DNA from: Vicinamibacterales bacterium
GTDB taxonomy: Bacteria; Acidobacteriota; Vicinamibacteria; Vicinamibacterales; UBA8438
Assembly (NCBI GenBank): GCA_965249105.1
Contig: OZ252219.1
Span: 633,262-697,261, forward strand
DNA length: 64,000 nucleotides
Reading direction: 5' to 3'
Position 1 is the first letter of the stretch, and each line of letters opens with the position of its first letter. The position numbers were made by a program, and so were the translations under genes. Below, piece after piece: positions 38,013-53,933 of the stretch. The notes below the pieces were generated by a model. That model ran no database searches. It was not told where the DNA came from and saw nothing but the letters and a program-made list of their open reading frames with translations.

Positions 38013-39444
38013 GAGTGTGAGCGAAACTTAGTTGGAAATTGAAGCGGCTCCAAACCCTGTGGTTTGATGACGTTTGAGAAGACGGACATCAGCCCACGAG
38101 AGAAAGGAGCCGAGATGAGCAGTGTCCTACGATCGGTCAGGAAGCGCAAGAAAGGTCACACGTTGGGCGCGGTCGACGTCATCGACCGCGAGGAGTACGC
38201 CGAGCTGGAGGTCGATGCCAAGGTGGCGTTGATCCGGTCGTTGGTTCCGCTGGGCTTGATGCACATCGAGGAGTTGCTCGACGAGGAAGTGACCGCGCTG
38301 GCTGGCGAGCGCTACGCCCGCAAAGCCCCGTCAGTCGGCGGGCGCCGTCATGGCAGCAACCCCGGGACGGTCGGGTTGGCCGGCCAGCGCGTGCCGATTC
38401 GCGTGCCCCGGATTCGCCATGTCACGGAGCGCGAGATTCCCCTGCGGTCGTACGAGGCGCTGCATGGCGATCGCGCAGTCAACGACCTGTTGCTGAGGCG
38501 CGTGCTGTATGGGATCTCGTGCCGCAACTACGCGGCGGCCGCCGAGGCGATTCCCAGGGCGATCGGCCTATCGGGGTCGACGGTGTCCCGCGCGTTCATT
38601 CAGGCCAGCGCGACGAAACTCCGCGAGCTCCAGGAGCGGGACCTCTCCGGGGAGGACGTCGTGGCCCTCGTGCTGGACGGCAAGACGTTCGCCGAGGCGA
38701 CGATGGTCGTCGCGCTGGGCATCACGATGACGGGGGACAAACGGTTCCTGGGCGTCGTCGAGACGGACACGGAGACCGAGAAGGTGTTGACCCCGTTCCT
38801 CCGGTCATTGGTCGAGCGGGGCCTCGATGTCTCCCAGGGGCTTCTGGTGATCGTGGATGGCGGCAAGGGGCTCCGGGCGGCCGTGCGGAAAGCCTTCCGC
38901 CACCGCGCCCTGGTGCAACGGTGTCAGTGGCACACGCGCGAGAACGTGGTGAGTTACGTGGCCAAGCGTGAGCAGCCGGTGTGGCGGCAGCGTCTCCAGC
39001 GCGCCTACAACCGTCCGGAGTACGACGAGGCCCTCGCCGCCCTCAAGTCGCTCCAGCATGAGCTGGAGGATCGGAACCAATCCGCGGCCGGCAGTCTGGC
39101 GGAAGGCCTCGACGAGACCCTGACGTTGCATCGCCTCGGGGTGTACGGTGTGCTGGGCCGGTCGCTGAAGACGACGAACAGCCTCGAGTCCATCAACGCG
39201 CTCATTGAGGAGCGCTGTGCGAAGGTCGATCACTGGCAGAACTCGAGTCAACGCCATCGCTGGCTGGCCACTGCGCTCCTGGACATCGAGCCACGCCTGC
39301 GCAAGGTGATGGGCTACCGGCACCTGCCCAGGCTTCGTGACGCATTGAAGCGAGAGCTGAAGATCGACACGACGACGTCGACGAAGAAAGCCGCGTAAGC
39401 AATCAGGAGCCGCGGAGAGTTTCAACTAGGAATGGGCTTGACTC
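38013..39444 (+). mobile_element. IS256-family element, 1432 bp; transposase ends at 39398
   Basis: LVLDG, IVDGGKGL, QRCQWH, TTNSLES; 8-bp TSD CCAGATAA. Confidence 0.93.
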
Positions 39445-39696
39445 CCAGATAATGACGTAACAGCACACGTTTCTCCCGCATATACATAGGAGGCACTTGC
39501 AAAACTCCTGGCCGACAGTGGAACAAGCGTCAGGGTTTGGGTGCAAACTGGTCACTCGGGCCCAGGGCACCGGGATCGAGGCACCGATTCATGAGGAGAC
39601 GCAGGCCCGCCCGGGCATTGGGCGAGGGTCTGGCAAGAGCTGCCGCCTTCTGCGCGTAGGCAGCTGGGTGGATCGAGGTCATCACGTCACCGATGG

Positions 39697-40836
39697 CTAC
39701 GTGACGAGGCGCATGAGTTGGTCAGCGGTGAGTGCGAGCACGCCGAACATGCAGTGGCACATCACCTTCGCCGGGCCGCGGACCCGGACATGGCGACCGC
39801 CGAATTCGTCCTTGAGGCGGCCATTGACCCGCTCAACGGCCGTGCGTTCGTTGTAGCGAACGTCCTCCGGAAGCTGGAAGCCAAGCACCTGTCGGCGCCG
39901 AGCTTCCGCTTGGCGTTCTTCCTTCAGCGCCGTGTTGCGGCGCGTGTTGATGTCGATCAGCGGAACGTGGTTCAGCGAACGGCTGTGTGCCCGAATCTCC
40001 TGCGCATCGTAGGCGGCGTCCATCACGTCGTACAGATTGGTGCTCCGCTCGGCGGACAGGGTTGCGAGCGGAATAGCGGCCTGGCTGTCATGAAGGGAGG
40101 CAGCGGTCAGTAGGCAGCTGATGGGGATCTGGCCATCGGCCACATCGATATGCAGCTTGTAGCCGACCCAGGTTTCCTTGTAGCCCTTGCTGTTCTTTTT
40201 CGTCCCGACATCGCAGGCCGTCGGGAGATCAGCGAGCATCTCCGGCTTGGTCATGGTGCCCTGCCGCTGCAGACGCGTGGGCTCGTGAGGGCGCTCCTCT
40301 CCCTTCTTCGGTCGTCCCCGCTTCCGCTGCGAGGGCGCGGGCGGCTTGTCCTTCGTGGCGGGCTTCTCGCGTGCCGCAATCGCGGTGGAGTCTCGCGAGA
40401 GATGACCGACCAATCGGTCGTGATGCGTCTTCTGGATGACCGTCTCGTGCACGCGCAGAGGCAACTGCGTGGTCGCAAACTCGTCGAAGGCGTGTGAGAA
40501 CAAGGATTCGCTCGGGACCTGGCGCCTAGTCTCCCAGCCGCAGATCCGGCGCAAGGGTCGATCGGTGGCCAGCCGATCGAGCAGCCTGCGTGTCGTCGGC
40601 AGGTCGTAGACGGCCTTGGCGACAAACGCGCGGGCTACGGCCGCGCGATCCTTGCGAGGTCGGCCGGGCATGCGGACGCGTCGGGGAATGTGGTCCTCGA
40701 CCCGGATGACCTCCAAGGTCTGCACGAACTGCTGCTGTTTCTCCGTGAGTGGTCCCAGCTCTTCCTCCAGCCATGGAAAGAGTGCGGTCTGAATGGACAG
40801 CCAGTGTGGTGCGAAGCACTCTCGGAGACGGCTCAT
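39697..40836 (-). CDS. DDE transposase
   Basis: SRDSTAI, WVGYKLH, MDAAYD, RTAVERVNGRLK. Confidence 0.9.
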   Translation of the reverse strand: MSRLRECFAPHWLSIQTALFPWLEEELGPLTEKQQQFVQTLEVIRVEDHIPRRVRMPGRPRKDRAAVARAFVAKAVYDLPTTRRLLDRLATDRPLRRICGWETRRQVPSESLFSHAFDEFATTQLPLRVHETVIQKTHHDRLVGHLSRDSTAIAAREKPATKDKPPAPSQRKRGRPKKGEERPHEPTRLQRQGTMTKPEMLADLPTACDVGTKKNSKGYKETWVGYKLHIDVADGQIPISCLLTAASLHDSQAAIPLATLSAERSTNLYDVMDAAYDAQEIRAHSRSLNHVPLIDINTRRNTALKEERQAEARRRQVLGFQLPEDVRYNERTAVERVNGRLKDEFGGRHVRVRGPAKVMCHCMFGVLALTADQLMRLVT

Positions 40837-40899
40837 TTTCTTCTTGACTCCTGGGGCCAGGTCTAGCAGTATAACAACTGCTAGACCGAATGGCACGAC

Positions 40900-41247
40900 A
40901 TGCCCACCCGTGACCCAACAACCGACACGCAGCGCTACGACGCGCTCAAGCGCACCGTCGCTGAGGTGGGATTGCTTCGACGTGGCAGCCTCGTGCAACG
41001 TTTCATGCCGTGCGGCAAGCCGAACTGCCGCTGCCAAGCGACGCCCCCGCAGCTACACGGGCCGTACTATCAGTGGACCCGCAAGGTCCGCGGCAAGACC
41101 GTCACCGTCCGTCTCACCGAGCAGCAAGCCGAGCGTGTCCTGGACTGGATCGAGAACGGCCGACAGCTAGACCGAATCGTTGTGGAAATGGAGACGTTGT
41201 CGCTGCGGATGACTGAGCGCCTGCTTCGTCAGCTCACGCCTGTGTGA
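40900..41247 (+). CDS. DUF6788-like small Cys/His protein
   Basis: RGSLVQRFMPCGKPNCRC...HGPYYQWTRKVRGKTVT. Confidence 0.8.
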   Translation: MPTRDPTTDTQRYDALKRTVAEVGLLRRGSLVQRFMPCGKPNCRCQATPPQLHGPYYQWTRKVRGKTVTVRLTEQQAERVLDWIENGRQLDRIVVEMETLSLRMTERLLRQLTPV

Positions 41248-41369
41248 TGTGGCCCGCACCGTGCGCAAGCCGCCAAAAAACTTCTCTACGCGCAGGGTTT
41301 TGCAAGTGCCTCATAGGCGACTCCACTCTCGCGTGGTCGCCATGGGAAACGGCGGCAGTCGCCGCCGTC

Positions 41370-41425
41370 AACACGTGTGCAATTTTGGGCCGCCGGATCT
41401 GTGCAATTTACGCCCGCCGCTTACA
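41370..41425. mobile_element. Orphan IS21-like terminus
   Basis: 2x TGTGCAATTT..CCGCCG ending in TTACA. Confidence 0.55.
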
Positions 41426-41451
41426 CTCAATCGGGCTGACCTGCACCAGCT

Positions 41452-41559
41452 ATGGCCTTAACCGTCGGTTCCCACCTTGCCACTCGTATGACCGCTCTCA
41501 TCGGCGAAGGCGGCATGGGACAGGTCTATCAGGCTACTGAAAGCGTGCGTCACAAATGA
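41452..41559 (+). pseudogene. Ser/Thr kinase 5' stub 1 (35-aa ORF)
   Basis: MALTVGSHLATRMTALIGEGGMGQVYQATESVRHK*. Confidence 0.8.
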
Positions 41560-42236
41560 CCGTCACAGTGGTTCGGGTTTTCATCTTTTCGATCCTGCCG
41601 CTCTTGGTGGCAGGAGCACACGTTGCATTGGACAAGAGCGTGAGGTCCCGCGAACGTAGGCTGGAAGTCTTGCTTCTATACCTCTTTGCTCTTGGTGTCG
41701 CTGGAGGTGGCATTTCTGGCTTCTTCGGCCATCTTTTCCTCTCCGACTTTGTTGCCGAATCGATCGGTTGGCCGTCAGGCAATCCTTTTCAGCTGGAAGT
41801 GGGCTTCGCTAATCTGGCTGTTGGTAGTCTGGGGATCATGGCCATGGGACGGCGTGACGGCTTCCGCGAGGCCACAGTGATCGCAGTGGCCGTATTCGGC
41901 GTCGGGGCCACCATCGTCCACCTGATGGACATCGCCGAGACGGGCAACTTGGAGCCCGGCAATACGGTCCAAAACGTGAGTAATCTGCTCCGCCCGGCCC
42001 TTCTGATCGGATTCTTGGCTGCGAGCAGGTCAGCCGAACGGAAGCCGATCTCGGAAGCTGGGTCGTCAACGTTTGCGAAGTGGCGAGCGCCCAGGGTCCG
42101 GGCGGCCGGATGGATGACTGCGGGCGTTGCCACTGGATTTGGGATCGGGTTTGGTCTTGGCCAGCCTACGATCGGAACAACCCTCGGGATCGTGGCCGGA
42201 GCCGTCCTCGTTGTAGCTGCCCTGAGAGGAAGATAA
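41556..42236 (+). CDS. DUF6790-like membrane protein
   Basis: FFGHLF..DFVAESIGWPSGNPFQLEVGFANLA; multiple TM segments. Confidence 0.75.
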   Translation: MTVTVVRVFIFSILPLLVAGAHVALDKSVRSRERRLEVLLLYLFALGVAGGGISGFFGHLFLSDFVAESIGWPSGNPFQLEVGFANLAVGSLGIMAMGRRDGFREATVIAVAVFGVGATIVHLMDIAETGNLEPGNTVQNVSNLLRPALLIGFLAASRSAERKPISEAGSSTFAKWRAPRVRAAGWMTAGVATGFGIGFGLGQPTIGTTLGIVAGAVLVVAALRGR

Positions 42237-42331
42237 CCACCCTTTCGCCTCGCGGGAGCGGACGCAGCCTCGACGCGACAATCCATCTTAGAATGCTCCT
42301 GATCTGCGGTCGAGAGTTCCATCGCAGCCTC

Positions 42332-42510
42332 ATGTCCCTAAACATCGGCGACCGACTCGCCCATTACGACGTGACCGCCCTCATCGGCGAGGGCGGGATG
42401 GGGCAGGTGTATCAAGCCACCGATACCACGCTGAACCGCCAGGTGGCGCTGAAGATCCTGCCTGAGGCGTTTGCCGACGATCCTGATCGGCTGGCCCGGT
42501 TCCAGCGAGA
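42332..42510 (+). pseudogene. Ser/Thr kinase 5' stub 2
   Basis: MSLNIGDRLAHYDVTALIGEGGMGQVYQATDTTLNRQVALKILPEAFADDPDRLARFQRE. Confidence 0.9.
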
Positions 42511-42524
42511 GGGGTCCGTCAACA

Positions 42525-42559
42525 ACAGCCTCCGTCCTGCTGCGGAGGCTGTCTTTTTT
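42525..42559 (+). terminator. Rho-independent terminator-like hairpin
   Basis: 10-bp stem ACAGCCTCCG/CGGAGGCTGT followed by CTTTTTT. Confidence 0.6.
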
Positions 42560-42752
42560 GGGTACTGTCAAGTTCTCCATGTCTGCCGACACCATGACGC
42601 ATGAAACGCGATAGAGTGTGAGCGTGCATGGGTAGAGATGGGCATATGCCACACGTCAGCGGGAGTTGTAGTCGGACGGATGGAGGCGATAGAGTCCTTG
42701 ATCTCTGCTCTGGCGAGTTCTCAACGCTCAACAAGACTTGGAGGTTTCCGCC

Positions 42753-43727
42753 ATGCCTAACCAAATGCTCGTGACGGCTGTTGCCGCGGCCATGCTCGCG
42801 GGATGTGGGGCCGAGCCCGAGCCGCCCTCGCCCGAACCAGAAGCTTCGATGCCGGAAGCGGCTCCTTCCATGCCCACACCTGACCTCCCTCCGGCGATGA
42901 TCGTGGCGGAGCGAGGAGGCTTCATTCCGGAAGGTGTGGAGTACGACACCACGAACGGTCGCATTCTGGTTGGGTCGCTCTCCGAGGGCTCCATCTTTCA
43001 CATCCACAACGATGGCCAGGTGACGACCGTGGTGAGCGATCCCGATCTGGTCTCGTCAGTTGGCATCGAGGTCGACGAACCTCGAAATCGTCTACTGGTG
43101 GCGAACTCGGACCGGTCCGTGTTCCAGGGCGAAACGGCTGGGCAAGCGAAGCTAGGTGTGTACAACCTCACGACCGGGGAACGGGTTGCCATGGTGGACC
43201 TTGCCGCGGCCATCGTCGACGCTCCCAGTGACGCCGTCTACTTCGCGAACGACGTGGCGGTTGGGGAGGATGAAACGGCGTACGTCACCGATACACGGAT
43301 GGGCATGATCTACCAAGTCGACACCAACTACGAGGCCTCGGTGCTGCACCGATTCGATGACTTCGGACCCAACGGGATCGTCTATCACTCTTCGGGATAT
43401 CTCCTGGTGGGGGGCGGCGCAGCCCTTTGGAAGGTGCCGCTCGACGACCCGACTGGAGCCACCCAGGTGACGCTCCCGGAGGAGGTGCCAGGGCAGGACG
43501 GGATGGTGTGGACGGCTGATGAGCGCCTGGCCATCGTCAGCAATTCCGGTAACCGCGTGGTGGCGTTGACGAGTGAGGACAACTGGGCCACGGCACAGCT
43601 CGCAGGGGTCGCGCCATATGAGACTCAAGCGACGACCGCTGCAGTTGTCGGTGACGACATCTACGTGGTCCATCCACACTTCGCGGACGAGGATCCTCCG
43701 AGTGTCGAGCGCGTGGTGTTTCAGTGA
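42753..43727 (+). CDS. SMP-30/gluconolactonase-like beta-propeller lipoprotein
   Basis: LAGC lipobox; FIPEGVEYD, FANDVAV, GPNGI, GQDGM. Confidence 0.82.
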   Translation: MPNQMLVTAVAAAMLAGCGAEPEPPSPEPEASMPEAAPSMPTPDLPPAMIVAERGGFIPEGVEYDTTNGRILVGSLSEGSIFHIHNDGQVTTVVSDPDLVSSVGIEVDEPRNRLLVANSDRSVFQGETAGQAKLGVYNLTTGERVAMVDLAAAIVDAPSDAVYFANDVAVGEDETAYVTDTRMGMIYQVDTNYEASVLHRFDDFGPNGIVYHSSGYLLVGGGAALWKVPLDDPTGATQVTLPEEVPGQDGMVWTADERLAIVSNSGNRVVALTSEDNWATAQLAGVAPYETQATTAAVVGDDIYVVHPHFADEDPPSVERVVFQ

Positions 43728-43950
43728 GCCTGAAACGGCCGGGGGCGTGATGTGTGGCCAGTGTTCCGCTACGACAGTGGGTGGTTAACGGCGAGTCGTT
43801 AGTACGTCTGGTTCCAGGAACTCACCGAGGGCGTGCCCGGACCGTAGGCCGAGGGTCGCCAACTCATCTTGCATTGATCGAGGCCGGTCCCGTCCAACGC
43901 CAAGCTATGATTCGGCCTTAGCTATCCCGTCCACAGCCCAAGGGCGCCCA

Positions 43951-44238
43951 TCCCTCAATATCGGTGACCACCTCGCCCACTACAACGTCACGGCCCTCAT
44001 CGGCGAGGGCGGCATGGGCGTGGTCTACGAGGCCAGCGATCCGCGGCTCGAGCGCACGGTTGCCATCAAGCTCCTCCCGCCAGATCTGACGCGAGACGAG
44101 ACCGCCAAGCAGCGGTTCCTGCAGGAAGCCCAAGCGGCCTCGGCGTTGGACCACCCCAACATCTGCACCATCCACGAGATCAACGAGACCGACGACGGGC
44201 AACTCTCCACTTACGTTACCTCGCGGTCTGTCCACTAG
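43951..44238 (+). pseudogene. Ser/Thr kinase 5' stub 3 (start codon lost)
   Basis: SLNIGDHLAHYNVTALIGEGGMGVVY...VAIKLL...EAQAASALDHPNICTIHEI. Confidence 0.9.
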
Positions 44239-44289
44239 GATGCAGGCGGGGACGCCGAGACCAAGGCCCACTGGGGACCTGGAGCTGTG

Positions 44290-44754
44290 ATGAGATTCGG
44301 GGTGAGTCGCCACGCGCTGATACTCGCGCTCGTCTTGCTCTATACGGCGGGGTTCCGACTCGTCGTCCTCGACCGTCCCTTCGGCTACGACGCGGAAGGA
44401 GCCTCGGCCAGCCAGTACGGGATCCTGGCGAGGAACTACCTTCGGTTCGACTGGACCCAAACCCACGGCATGCCCGCCCTCACCGTCGGGCATCATCCGA
44501 CAGCACCGGTGGTTCTGTATCCCGATCACCCGCCCCTCATCCCACTGCTCGTCGCCCCGTTCTATGCGGGATTCGGCGTGGGTGAGTGGCAGACCCGGCT
44601 TCCGATTTCGATCATGACGATCGCGGCCGTGTATGTGCTGTATCGTCTGCTCGCCCTGACGGCCACGCGCCGCGCCGGCGTGGCGGCGGGCGCCGTGTTT
44701 GCGGCCAGCCCTTTGATCCTCTATTTCACCAGCGACCCACGGAGATCCCGGAAG
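44290..44754 (+). pseudogene. GT39/PMT-like membrane glycosyltransferase, N-terminal fragment
   Basis: YDAEG, YPDHPPL, FGVGEWQTRLP; ends at repeat copy 5. Confidence 0.75.
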
Positions 44755-45004
44755 GACCAAAAGTTTTAATCCGGGATAAGCCGGGATCATCCGGGATGAC
44801 CCCGGGATGCGACTCGCGCGGGCGCAACGACTTACGGGGATCGGCCGACATAATTGTGGTGCAACACTTTTGATCCATGAAATCGCCTTCACGGCGTTTG
44901 CCGGGGGTTTTGGCCCCTCAAAATTGGGGGGGGTCGCGGGAGTGTCCCCCGTCGTGGACAGCTCTGCCGCCGCGCCGCGCGCGGCCGGATGATAAGCAGG
45001 CGTC
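44755..45004 (-). repeat. Iteron-bearing dispersed repeat, copy 5
   Basis: Diverged inverted copy of 35596-35850. Confidence 0.9.
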
Positions 45005-45099
45005 TGGGGTATCCATTTAACCGGAGTAACCTGGGCACGCCTCTACGAGGCGGCGATTGCAGGAGTGCAAAAGGAAGGCATCCTGCGGTGCCGTTGCCG

Positions 45100-46570
45100 T
45101 CGGTTCCGCGTCATGGCCAACGTCGAGGAACTCGAACGGGCTCTCGATTTCCCCTGGGAGAAATGGACGGTCTTCCTTCATCCGGCCCAGCGGGAACTGG
45201 TCGAGCGTGACTACGAGGGTCCCGCACGGGTCGCGGGGTCCGCTGGCACGGGCAAGACGGTGGTAGCCCTCCATCGTGCTGCCTATCTGACCCGCAGCAA
45301 TCCCGCAGCCAGGGTTCTCCTCGCCACGTTCTCGGAAACGCTGGCGAACGCCCTCAAGAACCAATTGAAGTGCCTCGTCGGGAACGAACCCCGGCTGGCC
45401 GAACGCCTGGAAGTCTGGTCGATGACCGGCATCGGCAAACGGCTCTATGAGGCTCGGTTCGGGAAGCTAGACCTTGCGTCTGACGGCCGCGTGCGCCAAC
45501 TGCTCGAAGAGAAGGCTGCGACGGTCGAAGGACACAAGTTCAGCACGCGGTTCCTCTGGTCTGAATGGGCCAACACCGTGGACGCCTGGCAGCTGGCCAC
45601 CTGGGAGGACTACCGGGACGTGAAGCGTCTGGGCCGCAAGACACGGCTGGCACAAAGCCAGCGGACCATTCTGTGGGACATCTTCGAGAAGGTCCGCTCC
45701 GCCTTGAGCAGGGAGGGCGCAGTCACCAAGGCTGCGATGTTCACGGACCTCGCGGCGAAGCTTGGTGAATCTGATCACCCGCCGTTTGACTTTGCGGTGA
45801 TTGACGAGGCCCAGGACGTGGGCGTGGCTCAGCTACGCTTCCTCGCGGCCCTCGGGAGCAAGCGGCCGAATGGCTTGTTCTTCACTGGTGATCTGGGACA
45901 GCGGATCTTCCAAGAGCCGTTCTCGTGGGAGGCTCTTGGCGTGGATGTCCGGGGACGCTCGACGACGCTGAAGGTCAACTATCGAACCTCCCACCAAATC
46001 CGCACACAGGCGGATCGGCTGCTGGATCCAATGCTTGCAGACGTGGACGGTAACGAGGAGATCCGCACCGGGACGATCTCCGTCTTTAATGGGCCGACCC
46101 CAGAGATCCGCGTCTGCGATTCAGTAGAGGCCGAGACCCAGGCTGTCGCCGATTGGATCAAGCAGCGCCTCACAGAGGGCGTAGAGCCACACGAGATCGC
46201 GGTCTTCGTGCGATCTGGGGCTGAGCTACGACGGGCACAGGATGCTCTCGCCCGAGCGGACATCCCGCGTGAGACGCTGGACCAGAGGTTGAAGGTGACA
46301 AAGGGCTCGGTTTCCGTCACCACGATGCATCTGGCTAAGGGGCTGGAGTTCCGGGCCGTGGCGGTGATGGCCTGCGACGACGAGATCATTCCCTTGCAGG
46401 AGCGTATTGAAAACGTGGCGGACGAGTCCGACCTGAAGGAGGTCTACAGCACTGAGCAGCACTTGCTCTATGTTGCATGCACTCGGGCGCGGGACCATCT
46501 TCTCGTGACGGGCATCAGCCCGGCGTCAGAGTTCCTTGACGACCTGGAAGCCAAGGCTGCGGTGGCGTGA
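45100..46570 (+). pseudogene. UvrD/Rep-like SF1 helicase, probably missing its N-terminal domains
   Basis: GSAGTGKT, IDEAQD, GDLGQRI, NYRTS, TMHLAKGLEF, YVACTRAR; no convincing start codon or RBS. Confidence 0.8.
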
Positions 46571-46782
46571 GTCCCTGGTTGGAAAAGCCGTTTCCGACAT
46601 CGGGTTCGGAGAGCCGTCTGGCATCGTTCCCGGTGGACCGTTGCCCCCTGGCCGCAAGGCGCAACCCCGTGCATTCCCGCGCAACTCCAAACTGCAGTGG
46701 GGTCTTGTAGTCCCTGGAGTTACGGCGATTCTCGAGGTGTGTAGTTAGTGCAAGTTATTGATATAATTGACGTTACGTAACT

Positions 46783-46840
46783 CAGAGGCGGACCCCATCC
46801 TTTGGACAGGTTTTCGTCACAGCTAAGGTGGAATCCGGGG
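46783..46840 (+). mobile_element. Orphan IS3-type left-end remnant (related copy at 50786-50817)
   Basis: GGACCCC...TTGGACAG...GCTAAGGTGGAATCC resembles the IS3 left end at 53890-53933. Confidence 0.55.
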
Positions 46841-46999
46841 GCACTTCAATCGACACTCGCATTGCCGATTCGATCAAGCAGCTAGGGAGCAAGAACGTAA
46901 GCAATCCTCTCGCGTCGGTCAATTGGGATTGAACAGCAATCCCCGTGAACGAGCTCGCCCGATCCTCTTGCGGATCGAGCGCCCGCCACGAGTGTGTAC

Positions 47000-48037
47000 C
47001 TAGCGCCGGGGCCTTGAACGATAGTGGCCCCTCACGTATGTACCATCGCGCCGATAGTAGCCCCCGACGTAGACGGTCTTGGGACGGCCGGTCGCCGCGC
47101 TGATGTCGCCGTAGCAGCTCCCGTTTTCTGCACATTGAGGTTTCAGGACGCGGGCCGCCGGTTCGCTTCCCGCCGTGGCGAGCGCTCGCTGGGCCTCAGT
47201 GAGCTGGCCCTGGTTGCACGCGAACGAGTTGCCCGAGCGGCAGTTCACGAAGTTGCGCCGGAGTTCAGCCTGGCGAACCTCATCGCGTTGCGCGTCGCTG
47301 AGCTGGTCCTGGTTGCACGCGAACGAGTTGCCCGAGCGGCAGTTCACGAAGTTGCGCCGGAGTTCAGCCTGGCGAACCTCATCGCGTTGCGCGTCGCTGA
47401 GTTGGTCCCGGTTGCACGCGAACGAGTTGCCTGAGCGGCAGTTCACGAAGTTGCGCCGGAGTTCAGCCTGGCGAACCTCATCGCGTTGCGCGTCGCTGAG
47501 CTGGTCCTGGTTGCACGCGAACGAGTTGCCCGAGCGGCAGTTCACGAAGTTGCGCCGGAGTTCAGCCTGGCGAACCTCATCGCGTTGCGCGTCGCTGAGT
47601 TGGTCCCGGTTGCACGCGAACGAGTTGCCCGAGCGGCAGTTCACGAAGTTACGCCGGAGTTCAGCCTGGCGAACCTCATCGCGTTGCGCGTCGCTGAGTT
47701 GGTCCCGGTTGCACGCGAACGAGTTGCCTGAGCGGCAGTTCACGAAGTTGCGCCGGAGTTCAGCCTGGCGAACCTCATCGCGTTGCGCGTCGCTGAGTTG
47801 GTCCCGGTTGCACGCGAACGAGTTGCCTGAGCGGCAGTTCACGAAGTTGCGCCGGAGTTCAGCCTGGCGAACCTCATCGCGTTGCGCGTCGCTGAGTTGG
47901 TCCCGGTTGCACGCGAACGAGTTGCCTGAGAGGCAGTTCACGAAGTTGGACGTGCCGGTTCGCTCTTCCTGAGCGGTCACCGATCCCGTCGCTAGGATGA
48001 GCAGTAGGAAGGCAGTGGCGACGCTTCGCGAGTGCAT
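47000..48037 (-). CDS. Secreted Cys-containing tandem-repeat protein
   Basis: Signal peptide; 7 full and 1 partial 33-aa repeats; C-terminal CAENGSCYGDIS...GYYRRDGTYVRGHYRS. Confidence 0.85.
   Translation of the reverse strand: MHSRSVATAFLLLILATGSVTAQEERTGTSNFVNCLSGNSFACNRDQLSDAQRDEVRQAELRRNFVNCRSGNSFACNRDQLSDAQRDEVRQAELRRNFVNCRSGNSFACNRDQLSDAQRDEVRQAELRRNFVNCRSGNSFACNRDQLSDAQRDEVRQAELRRNFVNCRSGNSFACNQDQLSDAQRDEVRQAELRRNFVNCRSGNSFACNRDQLSDAQRDEVRQAELRRNFVNCRSGNSFACNQDQLSDAQRDEVRQAELRRNFVNCRSGNSFACNQGQLTEAQRALATAGSEPAARVLKPQCAENGSCYGDISAATGRPKTVYVGGYYRRDGTYVRGHYRSRPRR
47186..47947 (-). repeat. 99-bp coding tandem repeat
   Basis: Near-identical units encoding NFVNCRSGNSFACN(R/Q)DQLSDAQRDEVRQAELRR. 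Confidence 0.97.
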
Positions 48038-48806
48038 TGAACGTACCTCACTTCGTATTCTAGCGCATGTACACAAGCACTTGAGGCAGTTCAGCTACTG
48101 GATCGAACGGAGCTGCGGGAGCCGTTGCATCCGTGCCGTAGCGGGGATGGCCGCAGGCGCGCGGTAGTCTCGTGAAGCGGCAACGCGCGGAGGTTGCGTT
48201 GGGGCACGGAATCAGATCCCGCGGAACGGGCCCACCGACGGGCGGGGCCGAGAGCTAGCCGTGCGGCGTGGAGGGTCCGCGCCGGCAGCGCAATGGCGGG
48301 GGATGACCGATCGTCGAGGTGCTCAGTACTGCCAGCCGTACTGCCAGCCGTTTCGGATGCTGGCAGCCGTGTTGGGACCCGTTGGGGCCCTTTCAGATCC
48401 GCGGTCTCCCCCGTAAATCCGGCACTACTTGGGATTCTCGTTGCGTTGCGAACGGCTTCGTAGCCATATCGAGCAGATTATTACCGAACACTATGAAGTG
48501 ACATACGGCGCTATGTCTCAGGCTCTTTCTGATCTCGGGCAACCGTGCGAGCGGCATCGAGTCATACTGAGAGTCACCACGGGTGGGCACAGAAAATGGC
48601 ACACTCCACTTCCTCGGCGGCAACTGGCAACTTCCGTTGATTCAGCGCCTCGCTTATGATCCGCGCGAGCGCGGCGCGGCAGCCCACAGCGGGGGACGCT
48701 CCCGCGGAATCCCCCATTGTGACGAGCCTAGACCCCCTGGAAACAGCGGTGTGAAGGGCGTGTCAACGGCGCGAGCTTAGCGAGTCGAACCTCAGCCTGA
48801 CAACCC

Positions 48807-48885
48807 GTGGCCCTCCAAGTCGGCATCACGCTCGGCCATTACGACGTGACCGCCGAGATCGGCGAGGGCGGGATGCGCCAGGTCC
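48807..48885 (+). pseudogene. Ser/Thr kinase 5' stub 4
   Basis: MALQVGITLGHYDVTAEIGEGGMRQV. Confidence 0.8.
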
Positions 48886-48999
48886 GACACCAAACTGAAC
48901 CGGCAGGTGGCTTTCACGGTCGGGGGCTCTGGATGCGTGATCAGGGCCCCGATGCCCAGCGGCTCTCCAGTGGGATCATGATGTGCGCATACGGCGTAT

Positions 49000-49226
49000 C
49001 CGGCCGATCAGCTCCACCTTGGCGTCGAGTTCCAATGCGCCGTAGTCCGCCCGGTTCATGACGTCGACCGAACCCAACGTACGACCCTTCTTGCGCTTCC
49101 TGACCGATCGTAGGACACTGCTCATCTCGGCTCCTTTCTCTCGTGGCGTGATGGTCGTCTTGTCAACGTCATCAAACCACAGGGGTTGGAGCCGCTTCAA
49201 TTTCCAACTAAGTTTCGCTCACACTC
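49000..49226 (-). mobile_element. Partial, diverged IS256-family left end
   Basis: Same terminus as 38013; MSSVLRSVRKRKKGRTLG. Confidence 0.88.
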
Positions 49227-49406
49227 ATGAATTAGATTATGGTGGTAGTGACGTGCGGACGGCGAGTATGAGTTACCCACGCATTCTGTCCCTATCACGT
49301 GTCAGAGTGCGTGGAACTGCACCGGAGCATCGGTCGAAGGCTGGACAGCGCCAAATTCCAGCACGGAGGCAACTGCGAATATACGTCTCACGCTTGAGAC
49401 GAGTCC

Positions 49407-50783
49407 TGCGCCCTAGAGTTTTCTTGGACAGTGGTTTGAAGGTAATCACTTCTACGCTGCTGCGTCCAGCCCGACGAGATCGCGTCGCACCTGGGCTGGA
49501 CTTCGATAGTCGTACTTCTCCAGCATCCACTGCTCGTTGTACGTTTGCTTAAACGCGAGCAAGGCGAGGCGGAGCTCCTCGAGCGTCTCGAAGCTTCGCA
49601 CCCACAAGACGTTTTCCTTCAGCGTGCGGATGAAGCGCTCCGCGACGCCGTTGCCTTCAGGCTCCCGCACAAAACTCGGGGAACTCTCGATGCCGAAGAA
49701 CGCGATCTCGTGTTGAAAATCGTCGGCCAGGTCGTTCGACCCGTGGTCGTGACGCAGACCAAGCCCCCTGGCGACGCCTTCGCCGATGCCCCCGAAGCGT
49801 TCCCGGATGCCTTGGCGGATCGGCTCGAGAGCCTCGAACCGGCTCCCGCTCTTCGCCGCATGGAGGCCGATGCACTCGGTCGTACAGTGATCGACGGCCA
49901 CAAAGACGCACGCCGCCCCCTCGCCCACGGTCACCGTGGCCGTCATATCCGTCCCCCACATGACGTCGGGGGCCTCCGTGGTGATCGTGCCGTCGTGCGC
50001 CTTCGGGCCATGCGCGTGGCCCGCGCGGTACGGGGCCTGGAGGCCGTGCTCCCGCATCAACCGCCGCACCCGTTCCTTCGAGGTGCGGATCCCTGCGACC
50101 CGCAGTTTCGCCCAGACTTTTCGGTACCCCTCGCCATGAAATGGCGAGGCTTCGAGCACCCGGCGGATGTGGCCGACCAGCACCACGTCCGTGGCGGCAC
50201 CGACCGGCCCGCGGCGTCGGGGGGGGGCGCGACCGCGTCGCGTGCCGTCGCGCGTAGACGCTGGACCGCGCCCGTCCCCACACGCGGCAGACCCGGTGTA
50301 CGCCGTACGCCCGACGGGCGGAGATCGACTGGGCGCCACTCATCGCGTCGACCTCCGCCGAGCCAAAGGGCCGCCGGCCTCCAGGTGGTCCACCTTCGCG
50401 TAGAGCAGCTCGTTCTCCATGAGCAGCTCGCCGACCTTGGCGTGCAGTCGCTGGTGCTCCTCATCCCGGGCATCCGGCGCGCGGCTCTTCAGCCCCGCCT
50501 GGCCCGCGGCCAGGAACTGGTCACGCCATTGGGAGGCCCGCGCCGCCGTGATCCCCAATTCCCGCGACACCGACTCGAGATTCTCGCCCCGCAGCAGGCG
50601 GAGTACCGTCGCGCGTTTACGCCGGGCCGAAAAACGCCCCTTCCGGTCACGCTCGGCGGCCGGTCCAGTCGCCCTCCGGGCGCTCTCCGCCGCCGTCGAT
50701 TCTTCAACCTGCTTTCTCATCTCGACACTCCTCCTGCGAGAACTCTCTCGCAATCAAGGTGTCCAAGAAAACTCTAGGGCGCA
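49407..50783 (-). mobile_element. IS3-family element; orfB frameshifted near the G-run at ~50220
   Basis: Perfect IR TGCGCCCTAGAGTTTTCTTGGACA; orfA RFSARRK; orfB WGTDMT...HDHGS...NGVAERF. Confidence 0.88.
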
Positions 50784-50899
50784 GGAGGTTTTCGTTACAG
50801 CTAAGGTGGAATCCGGGGTCATGATTCAAGCGACCTTGGGCTGACGGGAGACGGGGCGTAGCCCCGGGCTCCGAGCAACCTCTCCGTCAGTGTACGCAA

Positions 50900-51655
50900 G
50901 GTGTCGTCGCAACACCGCGTTGTGTGATTGAGCATAGGTGATCGCCAAGTGCCTCCGCGGGTCTTCCAGCCGAGGGTCTTGCGGGGGCGACTGTTGAGAG
51001 CAGCAGCAACGGCGTCAAGATCATCACGAGAGTGTCTGGACAGGTCGGTGCCTTTGGGAAAGTACTGCCGCAGCAGGCCGTTGGTGTTCTCGTTCGTGCC
51101 GCGTTGCCAGGGGCTGCGTGGGTCGCAGAAGTAGATTGGCAGACCGGTGTCGATTCGGAGTGGGCAGCGTGATGATCGACGACGCGATGGCGTCTCGGCC
51201 GGCCTCGGCACCATGCCCCGCCAGGGCGGGACCGTTCTTGATCCGAGGCTGCCCATCGTCATCCATGCGAGGCAGATGCAGCAGCCTCGTGAATCGGCTG
51301 GTGCGTTCCACGAGGGTCCCAATCGCAGAGCTCCCCAGTCCGACAATCAGGTCACCTTCCCAGTGTCCTGGGACCGCCCGATCGTCTGCTTCGGCGGGGC
51401 GCTTGCTGATCATGATTTCGGCAGTGACGAACGCCTTGCCGCGTCCTCGTGTCCGTGCTCTTGGCACGCGCAGCGCCCGGCCGGTCCGCAAGCACGCCAC
51501 CAGGTCGCGTCGCAGTGCCCCTCGTCCCTGCACGTAGAGCGCCTGGTAGATGGCCTCGTGGGAGATCCGCATCGACTCCTCATCGGGGAAGTCGACCTTG
51601 AGTCTGTTGGCAATTTGCTCAGGACTCCATGACGCCGCCCAGCGTCGGTCTTGAC
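50900..51655 (-). pseudogene. IS30-family transposase fragments
   Basis: WSPEQIA, SHEAIYQALY, GHWEGDLI, YFCDPRSPWQRGTNENTNGLLRQYFPKG. Confidence 0.88.
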
Positions 51656-51664
51656 GGCGCCCGG

Positions 51665-53933
51665 GGCCCCGCTTGCGAGAGACCGTGTCGCCCTGACGGC
51701 GGAGCCAGCGTGTCATCTGACGCGAGCCGTAAAACGGCGTCTCCAAAAACTGCTCGTCAATCAACCGCATGAGGCGCAGGTTCAACGGGCTCTCGCCCGT
51801 GCCATCGTAGTAGAACGAAGACCGTGCGATCGACATCAGGCGACATTGCCGCGTGATGCTCAGCCGATCGTGTTCCGCATCGACCATCGCCACCCTCCGG
51901 CCGTGGCTCACCGACCGAAGGCCTTCGACAAAAAATCCCGCTCGATGACGAGTTCTCCAATCTTGGCCGCAGCTCCGTGATCTCGGTTTCCCGAGAGGCT
52001 TCCTGCCGCTCGTGGTTCCCCGAGAAGCCGGCCAGCACCGTCTGTCGAGCCTGCTTCTTCCAGTTGGCAATCAGGTTCGGATGCACATCGTAGCGGGCCG
52101 CCAGCTCCGCCATCGTCGCTTCCTCGCGCAGCGCCCTCCCTGCCAATATAAGCGAGACACTTTGTCCCCCAGAAATTAGTGTTCAGGGCGGGGAGATGAC
52201 GTATTGATGGAAGCAATGCGCAGCATGCTGTCAGGACAGACGATCGTGGGAGAGGCGCCCCGCAGCGGAGGGTCTCCCGCGATCGTGCGCGAGATGTCGT
52301 CAGCCCCACCCGATCCCGAGGTGACCGCCCGACACGTCTGGCGCCGGTTCACAACGGCCTACAAGCTGGCAATCCTTCGGAAGGCGGATGCTTGTACCCG
52401 CCACGGCGAGCTCGGCGCACTCCTGCGGCGGGAAGGACTCTACTCGTCCCACCTGATTACGTGGCGTCAGCAGCGTGAGGCAGGGTTGACGCCGAAAAAG
52501 CGCGGACGGAAGGCGAGGGCCGTCGATCCGCGCGTGAAGAAGCTCGAGCACGAGAATCGTCGCTTGACCTCGCGGCTGCAGAAGGCCGAAGCGCTCCTGG
52601 CATATCAAAAAAAAGTTTCCGAGCTTCTGCAGATCCCCCTGAAACCGTTCGTGAGCGACGAGGACGATTGATGATCGCGGTCAATGACGCGGCCGCGGGG
52701 ATGGGCGTCGCGCCCGCGTGTCAGGCATTGGGGCTGTCGCGGGCGACGCTCTATCGGGGACGTCGACCGGCGAGGGTCGCGCGTCCCCACCCTGCGCCGC
52801 CCCGCGCGCTGCACCCCGGCGAGCGGCAAGACATCTTGGATCTGCTCCATACGCGTTTCATCGACCAGGCGCCGGCGCACGTCCATGCCACCCTCCTCGA
52901 TGAGGGCACCTATCTGTGCTCGCCGCGGACGATGTATCGCCTCCTCGCCGCCGCGCACGAAATCAAGGAGCGGCGCGATCAGGTGCGGCGGCCGCACTAC
53001 GCCGCGCCAGAGCTCCTGGCGACGCGCCCCAACGAAGTCTGGAGCTGGGACATCACGAAGCTGCTGGGCCCGGCGAAGTGGACGTATTTCTATTTGTACG
53101 TGATCCTCGACATCTTCAGCCGCTACGTCGTCGGCTGGATGCTGGCGCCGCGCGAAAGCGCAGCGCTCGCCGAGCGGCTCATCGCCGACACCTGCGCGAA
53201 GCAGGGCATTCAAGCGGGCCAACTCACGATCCACGCGGACCGGGGCAGCGCGATGCGAAGCAAGTCGGTCGCCCTGCTTCTCGCGGATCTCGGCGTCACG
53301 AAGACGCACAGTCGCCCCCACGTCTCCAACGACAACCCGTTTTCCGAAGCCCAGTTCAAGACCTTGAAGTACTGCCCGGCGTTTCCCGAGCGCTTTGGGT
53401 CCCTGGCAGACAGCCGGGCGTTCGGTCACCACTTCTTCGGCTGGTACAACCACGACCACTATCACAGTGGCCTGGGATTCCTGACGCCCGCCGTCGTCCA
53501 CTACGGCCAGGCCGAGGTCGTGCACGCGCACCGCACGCGGGTCCTCGCGGCTGCCTACGCAGCGCACCCAGAACGATTCGTCAAGGGGACGCCCACACCG
53601 GCCGATCTGCCGCAGGCGGTGTGGATCAACCCGCCGGCGAAGAAAACAACCGCTCAGGATGCCCGAGAAACGACGAGCGGCACCCCGGTCGACCTACAGG
53701 ACCCCCTGATCTCACGGTCCGGCAACCACTCCGCCGCCACGACGATCGACCTTGGCGCGACTCTAATTACTTCGCCCTTGGTGTCTCAATGTCATTGACA
53801 GCTTCCGCGCCTCCACCGCGACCTTCGCCTTCAGCTCAGCAGGATAACTCCGTCGCTTCCGTGGCATGCCAGACTCCTTCTCCTTGGTCTGGATCCCACC
53901 TTAGCAAGCTGTCCGAATTCCGGGGTCCACCTC
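51665..53933 (-). mobile_element. Truncated IS3-family element interrupted by another IS
   Basis: orfA MPRKRRSYPAELKAKVAVEA (from 53867) continues as LREEATMAELAARYDVHPN after 52134; orfB LSITRQCRL...FYGSRQM. Confidence 0.85.
52135..53806 (+). mobile_element. IS3-like element (orfA ends 52671, orfB 52668-53798)
   Basis: Subterminal IRs TGCCAAT..GAGACAC/GTGTCTC..ATTGACA; GCGC duplication; WSWDIT, HADRG, NDNPFSE. Confidence 0.88.

Follow-up and report, generated by a model that had tools for sequence, protein, structure and literature searches.

Integron cassettes are single, unrelated, co-oriented genes accompanied by a recurring element with attC-type ends, the integrase IntI and one shared promoter, Pc. 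In Rhs, contact-dependent inhibition (CDI) and other polymorphic toxin systems, orphan modules keep the 3' end of a conserved core, and toxin-immunity pairs are displaced downstream. Bacteria have been observed to activate foreign genes by promoter capture, through deletion or amplification at microhomologies (Li & Bock 2019, PMC6614815), and capture by rearrangement is ascribed to Blount et al. (2012) where that work is cited in PMC3575422. In the latter article, Nijveen, Matus-Garcia & van Passel (2012) surveyed putative mobile promoters; the families in this survey were mostly pairs, and extensions into paralogous coding DNA were removed from it. Here we analyse a stretch of 64,000 nucleotides (nt), referred to as the window (G000:C1:633262-697261), from the 6.11-Mb, single-contig (C1) genome G000 of a Vicinamibacterales bacterium. 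In this window, truncated 5' ends of Ser/Thr-kinase genes, termed stubs, stand in front of unrelated genes, termed cargo. We found no description of such kinase-stub/cargo arrays in the literature. At about an even chance, we read the stubs as scars of promoter and start-site capture in recombination-prone kinase arrays, reused as homology joints.

A sequence-only reading of the window had argued that random decay would not repeatedly leave nothing but the 5' end of a kinase gene. The pattern behind this argument extends over the whole genome. A kinase profile was made from 45 seeds, all from the genome's own kinases, and applied with a cut-off of independent E-value (iE) < 0.01. Of its 184 matches, 39 are intact kinases, 120 are N-terminal stubs and 25 are pieces of other kinds. 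The latter come mostly from the first 100 profile positions, and only four extend past position 130 without being near full length. Eight of the 45 seeds are stub-fusion chimeras, so that low-scoring alignments beyond about position 130 are unreliable, and one counted stub (5506094) is probably an intact divergent kinase, matched by the Pfam Pkinase model over positions 1-254. When the Pfam model was run against the whole genome, dozens of its matches started at model position 1 and ended between 24 and 85. Fragments are thus not drawn evenly from all regions of the gene, 120 5' pieces standing against 4 core-only pieces. The kinase fragments are overwhelmingly 5' ends, and the pattern is not due to chance.

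Control families in the same genome showed no such bias. The largest family seen besides transposases consists of proteins of about 350 amino acids (aa) ending in ..FEYACHEGNYG.. (92 motif sites; FEYACHEGN family). Among its 134 frames, 108 were near full length, 7 were N-terminal only and 19 lacked the N-terminal part, and the fragments often pair (several cases) as the two halves of one split gene. Sulfatases (43 matches) gave fragments of both ends and no 5'-stub excess, one gene being split by an IS256 copy. For adh_short, partial N-terminal matches lay inside long open reading frames (ORFs) of other Rossmann proteins, again with no excess of 5' stubs. Moreover, multi-copy DNA follows the junction in only 7 of the 120 stubs. 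On the strength of these two results, the 5' bias is real, specific to the kinases and not an effect of insertion sequences (IS). IS elements are not the cause of the stubs.

The stubs differ on average by 16% from the nearest intact kinase, and therefore stem from many distinct paralogues and not from one recent source. Their pooled ratio of non-synonymous to synonymous substitution rates (dN/dS) is 0.225. Stubs and intact kinases together form 17 clusters of at least three members; 14 lie on a single strand, two are made of two co-oriented blocks and one is mixed. The GC skew curve of the genome is irregular, and 73 of the 120 stubs are 'co-directional' under a doubtful origin.

Relatives were analysed for the same pattern: G001, G003, G004 and G014 from the same genus, and G008 and G009 from other families of the same order. 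Matches were taken as N-terminal only when they started at model position 10 or before and ended at 92 or before, and two rows abutting the remainder of the domain in another frame were omitted. By this rule, about 20 of 44 matches in G003, 16 of 29 in G004 and 11 of 24 in G001 were N-terminal only, with many more in G014. Arrays of stubs followed by unrelated ORFs are visible in G001, G003 and G004. Among the matches listed for G008 and G009 (33-36 kinase matches), there was no N-terminal-only stub.

The conserved DNA of the Gly-loop (profile positions 21-27) had been proposed as the recombination or capture site, and the position of the junctions contradicts this. Kinase homology in 109 stubs ended at profile positions 22-128 (median 42; 90th percentile 81), and a wider search using kinase upstream DNA found at least nine further sites where the kinase part amounts to the promoter alone or to under 15 codons. 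Overall, junctions range from the promoter -10 box to about codon 130 and are not tied to positions 21-27. Therefore the Gly-loop is not required, and the common denominator is the promoter-proximal end. One subfamily of 22 copies has a recognisable -35/-10 motif; the majority of its members stand before stubs, and in two the -10 box is immediately followed by another gene. The left limit of copy homology lies between +27 and -400, with its median at the ATG, for stubs and intact genes alike. Two local causes of the bias were rejected. Better conservation of the 5' end does not account for it, since identity between intact paralogues is 0.72-0.82 over the first 230 nt, no higher than the 0.77-0.79 of the catalytic core. 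Breakage at the G-rich Gly-loop, through G-quadruplexes or R-loops, does not fit junctions that are not centred there.

The comparison of these arrays with an integron did not hold either, for lack of an integrase above cut-off and of fixed ends on the repeated unit. The integron integrase model TIGR02249 gave 31 matches in G000, none of them above the 265-bit cut-off. The best was a 308-aa multi-copy protein matching in two pieces of 115 and 90 bits, with model positions 177-211 skipped. A tyrosine recombinase gene located 1.1 kb upstream of the array at 3.81 Mb reached 21 bits on the integron model and is generic. No attC-type repeat with a fixed crossover in each cassette was recognised, the junctions being variable and no dedicated attC model having been run. 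The fixed ends of an IS or of a miniature inverted-repeat transposable element (MITE) were likewise not found, the left limit varying as given above and the right limit from codon 0 to about 130.

Hairpin-rich spacers are confined to about 12 copies of the 22-copy promoter subfamily, and these copies have the kinase 3' end, the palindrome-bearing spacer, the promoter and the stub in common. The spacer measures about 250 bp from gene end to next promoter and contains three or four short perfect palindromes, as seen upstream of 3706797 (-), 3983539 (+) and 3175650 (-). In two cases the last codons of the gene occur twice in succession within the spacer, as though ends had been stacked through serial recombination. 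The 308-aa tyrosine recombinase is encoded by a 2.5-kb multi-copy element (G000:C1:2759062-2761603 and about ten other places, copies 87-100% identical), and about five of ten copies lie within 15 kb of kinase clusters.

The DNA behind the stubs was then compared with 20,000 random positions. For these statistics 12 of the 120 stubs, whose frame continues for more than 60 codons, were set aside. A same-strand ORF of at least 100 aa starts between -30 and +60 nt of the junction in 42 of the remaining 108 stubs, against 13% of random positions, and within 120 nt in 62 of 108, against 22%. These 62 stubs have the anatomy expected of promoter capture, in which the front of a donor gene comes to lie ahead of an intact gene of the same orientation, and stubless versions exist for two cargo genes. 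Stop and start codons overlap as ATGA in 13 of the 62 close junctions. One stub-cargo junction is common to G000, G003 and G004, with 70-76% DNA identity and the TGA/ATG overlap (ATGA) present in all three. In many stubs, -35/-10-like motifs can be seen by eye about 25 nt before the ATG. That the stubs donate promoters, as the sequence-only reading had suggested, fits both the ORF enrichment and the junction kept in three species; within the window, this role is plausible for one stub only.

Cargo N-termini resemble signal or transmembrane (TM) segments in 26 of 59 distinct proteins, against 912 of 3660 control ORFs, according to a crude hydropathy rule. Ten proteins were scanned for known families; one is an intact kinase, and the others are unrelated. 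The latter comprised DUF6790, SGL-like and PMT_2 proteins, a UvrD-type helicase, Sel1 repeats, an M1 peptidase and a metallo-beta-lactamase fold, while a 33-aa repeat protein and a 197-aa ORF gave no credible match. None of the ten matched a family of toxins or immunity proteins. In the array at 3.82 Mb, one cargo gene encodes a twin-arginine translocation (TAT) signal and has a stubless homologue in genome G006, with homology from about 13 nt before the ATG; in G000 the 36-nt spacer holds a fragment resembling the -10 region of the kinase promoter. Entry of cargo as cDNA through a reverse transcriptase was considered, given ten RVT_1 matches in the genome, and was set aside because the stubs carry promoter DNA upstream of any transcript start. 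Five of these matches score identically (frames of 574-601 aa at 1049851, 1502472, 1675158, 2479220 and 3025427) and look like reverse transcriptases of the group II intron type; the others are five further reverse-transcriptase matches.

The stubs also act as recombination joints, a conclusion supported by a crossover inside one stub, by one mosaic stub and by one cargo gene standing behind different stubs. The crossover is seen in the duplicate pair 2764151/3093714. The DNA ahead of one copy bears no relation to that ahead of the other. Over the first ~45 nt of the stub the two resemble each other only as paralogues do, and from +50 to +1640 they are near-identical (mostly 24-30/30 per window of comparison). 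The right edge of this block lies about 10 nt before the start of the next stub. The mosaic is found at the three-species junction, where the G004 stub combines two K5 subtypes, with a differing kinase subtype on its left side. The shared cargo is the glycosyltransferase gene of the window, present behind window stub 3, in a copy of that region at 2.99 Mb and in G001 (with an IS between stub and gene), and joined to another stub at 954455 (-). The suggestion that kinase stub DNA takes part in recombination thus stood, but its placement at the Gly-loop did not.

Two further comparisons involve G004. At a locus shared with G000, the latter lacks about 190 nt, including kinase codons ~31-85, which amounts to a shortening of the stub. 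A 574-bp segment starting at a stub ATG (G000:C1:2381004-2381576 against L029:5580-6153 of G004) is 98% identical, whereas other kinase pieces shared by the two genomes are 67-88% identical. This segment may reflect a recent transfer, or conservation due to a gene on the opposite strand. A tandem-duplication model was discarded: under it, a stub should be flanked on either side by identical cargo, and none of the arrays read showed this.

In the window itself, the four stubs were confirmed at the positions previously noted, by ORFs and by our own profile, and all retain the kinase N-terminus. They reach at most positions 1-71 of Pfam Pkinase (PF00069) and 2-87 of our profile, and a complete catalytic domain is lacking. 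No HRD or DFG remnant exists in the 64 kb, since the profile detects no kinase piece besides these four. The same-strand membrane protein, lipoprotein and glycosyltransferase described behind the first three stubs were also found, as a DUF6790 protein, a protein with a lipobox and an SGL-like propeller, and a PMT_2 protein, respectively. Unless indicated, the features below lie on the plus strand.

The left boundary of the region is formed by an IS of about 25 copies (39489-41312, minus strand), which encodes a 446-aa transposase-like ORF and whose copies are 99.7-100% identical by blastn against the genome. Stub 1 (41452-41559) is a 35-codon ORF containing IGEGGMG, with homology over 41452-41547 (profile 3-35, to about codon 32). 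The DUF6790 membrane protein gene (41556-42236; PF20589, E 2.4e-39) begins at an ATG that shares bases with the TGA of the stub (ATGA), one of the 13 overlaps counted above. The junction falls inside an 11-nt microhomology (CAGGCYACYGA) between kinase DNA and native DUF6790 upstream DNA, the latter taken from a stubless copy at genome position 3101624 (-), which there stands behind the end of another gene. The second junction examined, that of the glycosyltransferase at 954455 (-), lies 10 nt before the start codon with only 2 nt shared, so that microhomology was present at one of two. Further DUF6790 gene copies occur at 978 kb, 2.99 Mb and 3.10 Mb. A FEYACHEGN member at 3101745 (-) adjoins the 3.10 Mb copy.

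Stub 2 (42332-42512, ATG at 42332, profile 2-71) has dozens of matching places in same-genus genomes, at 72-93% identity. Directly behind it is a strong terminator-like hairpin with a T run (42525-42562; 11-bp stem with 7 G-C pairs). The lipoprotein cassette follows (42640-43837), its gene at 42738-43727 encoding a lipobox and an SGL-like propeller, the match to which has 23 bits and is below the Pfam cut-off of 26.3. The cassette is 93-94% identical at two G001 loci, and its left joint at ~42640-42662 is the limit of homology with both. Contigs of four public runs begin or diverge at the same place. No kinase match (E<=1) was present in the 1.5-kb flanks fetched around the two G001 loci. A kinase-family 3' stub (43806-43847) corresponds to the last dozen codons of a kinase-type gene, ..VWFQELTEGVPGP followed by a stop, and its C-terminal motif also ends full-length kinase-family ORFs elsewhere in G000.

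Stub 3 (43951-44238, the frame stopping at 44238) has homology over 43951-44199 (profile 5-87) and no start codon ahead of the Met of GGMG. Behind it, the window's PMT_2 glycosyltransferase gene (44287-44769) breaks off near 44727. Its 100% identical counterpart at 2.99 Mb is complete (526 aa, PF13231, L012:4757-6337), and identity with it ends at 44727. Just beyond this point, a multi-copy repeat of about 250 bp (44755-45003, without assigned strand), resembling an IS end or a MITE, has more than 25 partial copies at 72-95% identity. The peptide word SRIPGSSR from this repeat occurs 131 times in the six-frame translation. Stub 4 (48807-48905, GTG at 48807) contains IGEGGMR and has homology to ~48884 (profile 2-29), followed by a frameshift. 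Although the frame is lost, K5-like DNA continues for ~25 nt; there is no cargo. A duplicate of this stub lies at genome position 1250522 (-). About 120 nt past it is an IS256-family fragment (49006-49226, minus strand) with ~50 matches, at 87-90%, to IS256-like copies.

The window is a mosaic. The segment 41404-44727 has a 100% identical counterpart at 2987873-2991196, 41530-43727 is found again in another context at 3.10 Mb, 44771-50560 has a second copy at 1.25 Mb, and IS copies flank the region. IS elements in the window are found at 38013-39444, 39489-41312, 49408-50787 and 50897-51667. Genome-wide, the load amounts to ~55 IS256-family copies, ~25 of the 1.8-kb element, ~30 of another and diverged IS3-like copies, most of them 99-100% identical, which points to a recent burst. 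A 358-aa exported protein encoded at 47000-48076 on the minus strand contains eight near-identical tandem repeats of 33 aa (99 bp), ..NFVNCRSGNSFACNRDQLSDAQRDEVRQAELRR.., has a second copy at 1.25 Mb and matched no credible Pfam family.

RNA evidence consisted of assembled contigs of RNA libraries, from which transcription starts, strand and level cannot be read. Contigs cover 42640-44024. In run X15 there was none on the DUF6790 gene (41548-42231) or on the glycosyltransferase gene (from 44284), which is not evidence of silence. As the stubs are multi-copy, contigs of all runs break at them, and flanks in other strains are unreadable. Apparent stub-to-stub joints in the contigs were dismissed as cross-matches between paralogues. 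Labels such as 'sponge metagenome' came with runs that had small shares, and no habitat is assigned on that basis. Rfam returned no family for 41000-49400 at E<=0.1. Within the window, stub 1 alone has the anatomy of an active donor and, judged from the sequence, may plausibly drive the DUF6790 gene. Stubs 2, 3 and 4 are best read as spent joints.

Altogether, we favour the following explanation. The stubs would be scars, left where genes were replaced time and again within large tandem arrays of Ser/Thr-kinase paralogues. Unrelated, mostly accessory genes would have been joined behind the first 0 to ~130 kinase codons by illegitimate recombination, through microhomology as at the stub 1 junction and perhaps at others. 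The front end would be kept because the kinase promoter and translation start serve the downstream gene, as the anatomy and the one three-species junction suggest, while the catalytic and 3' parts, having no such use, would be deleted, as the shortening in one species pair illustrates. Once abundant, the stubs would act as homology for ordinary recombination, moving and swapping blocks as in the two cases described, with no dedicated recombinase or fixed site involved.

Several observations weigh against this explanation. Many stubs cannot serve as donors, among them three in the window: a terminator stands behind stub 2, the start codon is missing from stub 3 and the reading frame of stub 4 is shifted. 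Genome-wide, 46 of the 108 stubs lack a following ORF of 100 aa or more within 120 nt, the ATGA excess counts duplicated copies and is only about twice a rough chance estimate, and some of the 'in-frame fusions' (the 12 of 120 with a frame of more than 60 codons past the stub) are probably antisense artefacts. The promoter role rests on -35/-10-like motifs judged by eye, and a strict consensus promoter scan of 41300-44800 gave 0 sites, a result that, owing to its strictness, neither supports nor excludes promoters. The dN/dS of the stubs could reflect their past as working genes and not a present constraint. As the 5' end is not better conserved than the core, homology alone favours no 5' crossovers. 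Finally, selection for promoters alone leaves the targeting of kinases unexplained, the sulfatase (43) and FEYACHEGN (134) families being spared. Why kinases alone are hit is a question posed by the contrast in 5' bias, and our account does not explain it.

Four other explanations have to be set against the capture of promoters and start sites. The closest holds that stub and cargo, in part with a 3' stub and hairpin-rich spacer, form the units of a cassette system that needs no dedicated recombinase. Stubs would be portable homology arms, through which RecA-type recombination could excise, insert and exchange units, both among the more than 100 landing pads and from one species to another; the promoter would come as an extra, and the arrays would be maintained because of the exchange that they confer. 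We consider this rather unlikely, although the left edge of the 1.6-kb duplicated block falls within a stub and its right edge close to the next, the glycosyltransferase stands behind two different stubs, and the lipoprotein cassette has differing downstream neighbours within G000 and is present at two G001 loci. The 98% identity of the 574-bp stub and ORF between G000 and G004, the 72-93% identity of stub DNA between species and the common 3' end, spacer, promoter and stub of the ~12 subfamily copies also speak for it. However, most junctions are unique, and each needs an illegitimate event of its own that the model does not supply. Kinase-family 3' stubs number about 10 (among 35 motif matches) against 120 5' stubs, conservation does not peak at the 5' end, neither circular intermediates nor excision products were observed, contigs end at stubs and leave the flanks of other strains unreadable, and the 574-bp conservation may stem from an overlapping opposite-strand gene. 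It is equally doubtful that kinase front ends, partly with back ends and a hairpin-rich spacer, constitute att-like arms, making a functional analogue of an integron out of a paralogue family. A stricter version, in which a dedicated recombinase captures genes at a specific site in the Gly-loop and the arrays are true integron analogues, deserves hardly any credence. Co-orientation of the clusters, the recombinase gene upstream of the 3.81 Mb array and the hairpin-rich spacer of one subfamily would agree with it, but junctions are scattered over more than 300 nt, some of them upstream of the coding region. Moreover, the best integrase match stays at 115 + 90 bits against 265, the array-side recombinase at 21 bits, and the 308-aa recombinase is part of a multi-copy element.

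The remaining two explanations concern what the stubs do, or fail to do, once formed. The stub ORFs could be functional leaders, a promoter and short upstream ORF that place genes for exported proteins under kinase control and couple their translation, so that the arrays form a regulon of copied modules. Such a role agrees with the ATGA overlap kept in three species, where the stub is conserved at least as well as the cargo, with the -4 overlap in 13 of 62 close junctions, with the dN/dS of 0.225 and with the excess of signal- or TM-like cargo. We nevertheless judge it improbable, as stub lengths and end points vary freely, many stubs are frameshifted or without a start codon (stubs 3 and 4; the ATG lost at G000 1802288), upstream DNA is unrelated in most copies with the median left limit at the ATG, and no RNA family was matched. 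Neutral decay, by which an IS-saturated genome randomly breaks a redundant family and the 5' bias is an artefact of detection, is very improbable and largely refuted by the controls. The genome does carry dozens of copies of several IS families, window stubs 1 and 4 lie beside IS DNA, and there are frameshifted pseudogene stubs with the remainder in the next frame (3069003/3068936 and 3561852/3561787). But the catalytic core is the best-scoring part of the profile, hence detectable, yet gave 4 core-only pieces; control families break into both halves, with 108 of 134 FEYACHEGN frames near full length; and few junctions (7/120) abut multi-copy DNA. Arrays also occur in same-genus genomes with fewer kinase matches, and three species have one junction in common.

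Known cases of promoter capture are rare, isolated events. Across this genus of uncultured bacteria, by comparison, a single gene family heads about 100 unrelated genes, many of them probably exported. If the heads drive and couple expression, an expansion of paralogues has turned into a plug-in site for accessory genes. Annotation would then change, as stubs are usually called pseudogenes or missed and cargo starts are mis-set, and accessory-gene hotspots could be found by sequence alone. If the cassette system described above were real, it would open a second path to gene exchange of the integron kind, one that needs no integrase and in which a gene between two arms could enter more than 100 landing pads and cross species, arriving with a promoter and a coupled start.

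Compared with the described systems, the arrays are like integrons in that co-oriented unrelated genes are separated by a recurring element and vary in content among relatives. They differ in having no IntI above the cut-off, no fixed crossover and no recognised attC-type end, and in that each unit appears to have its own promoter-bearing head. As in Rhs/CDI orphan arrays, a conserved gene part provides the homology by which variable modules are swapped, leaving fragments in arrays. However, the kinase fragments are 5' ends, 0 of 10 scanned proteins are toxins and there are almost no 5'-truncated kinase bodies. The mobile promoters surveyed in PMC3575422 are also highly similar upstream regions before unrelated genes in one genome, with a mobilising mechanism that is not known. 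In contrast, the stubs are paralogous coding DNA, which that survey excluded, the left limit of their homology has its median at the ATG, and they exceed 100 copies. The closest likeness in anatomy is to promoter capture, in which a gene that was silent or has newly arrived becomes expressed once a rearrangement places it behind the promoter and front end of an upstream gene, with microhomology at the junctions; the junction of stub 1 and DUF6790 has the same anatomy. The published cases are single laboratory events involving arbitrary genes, whereas here there are about 120, in one family and one genome. Here, moreover, they form co-oriented arrays that recur across the genus, at least one junction having persisted through speciation.

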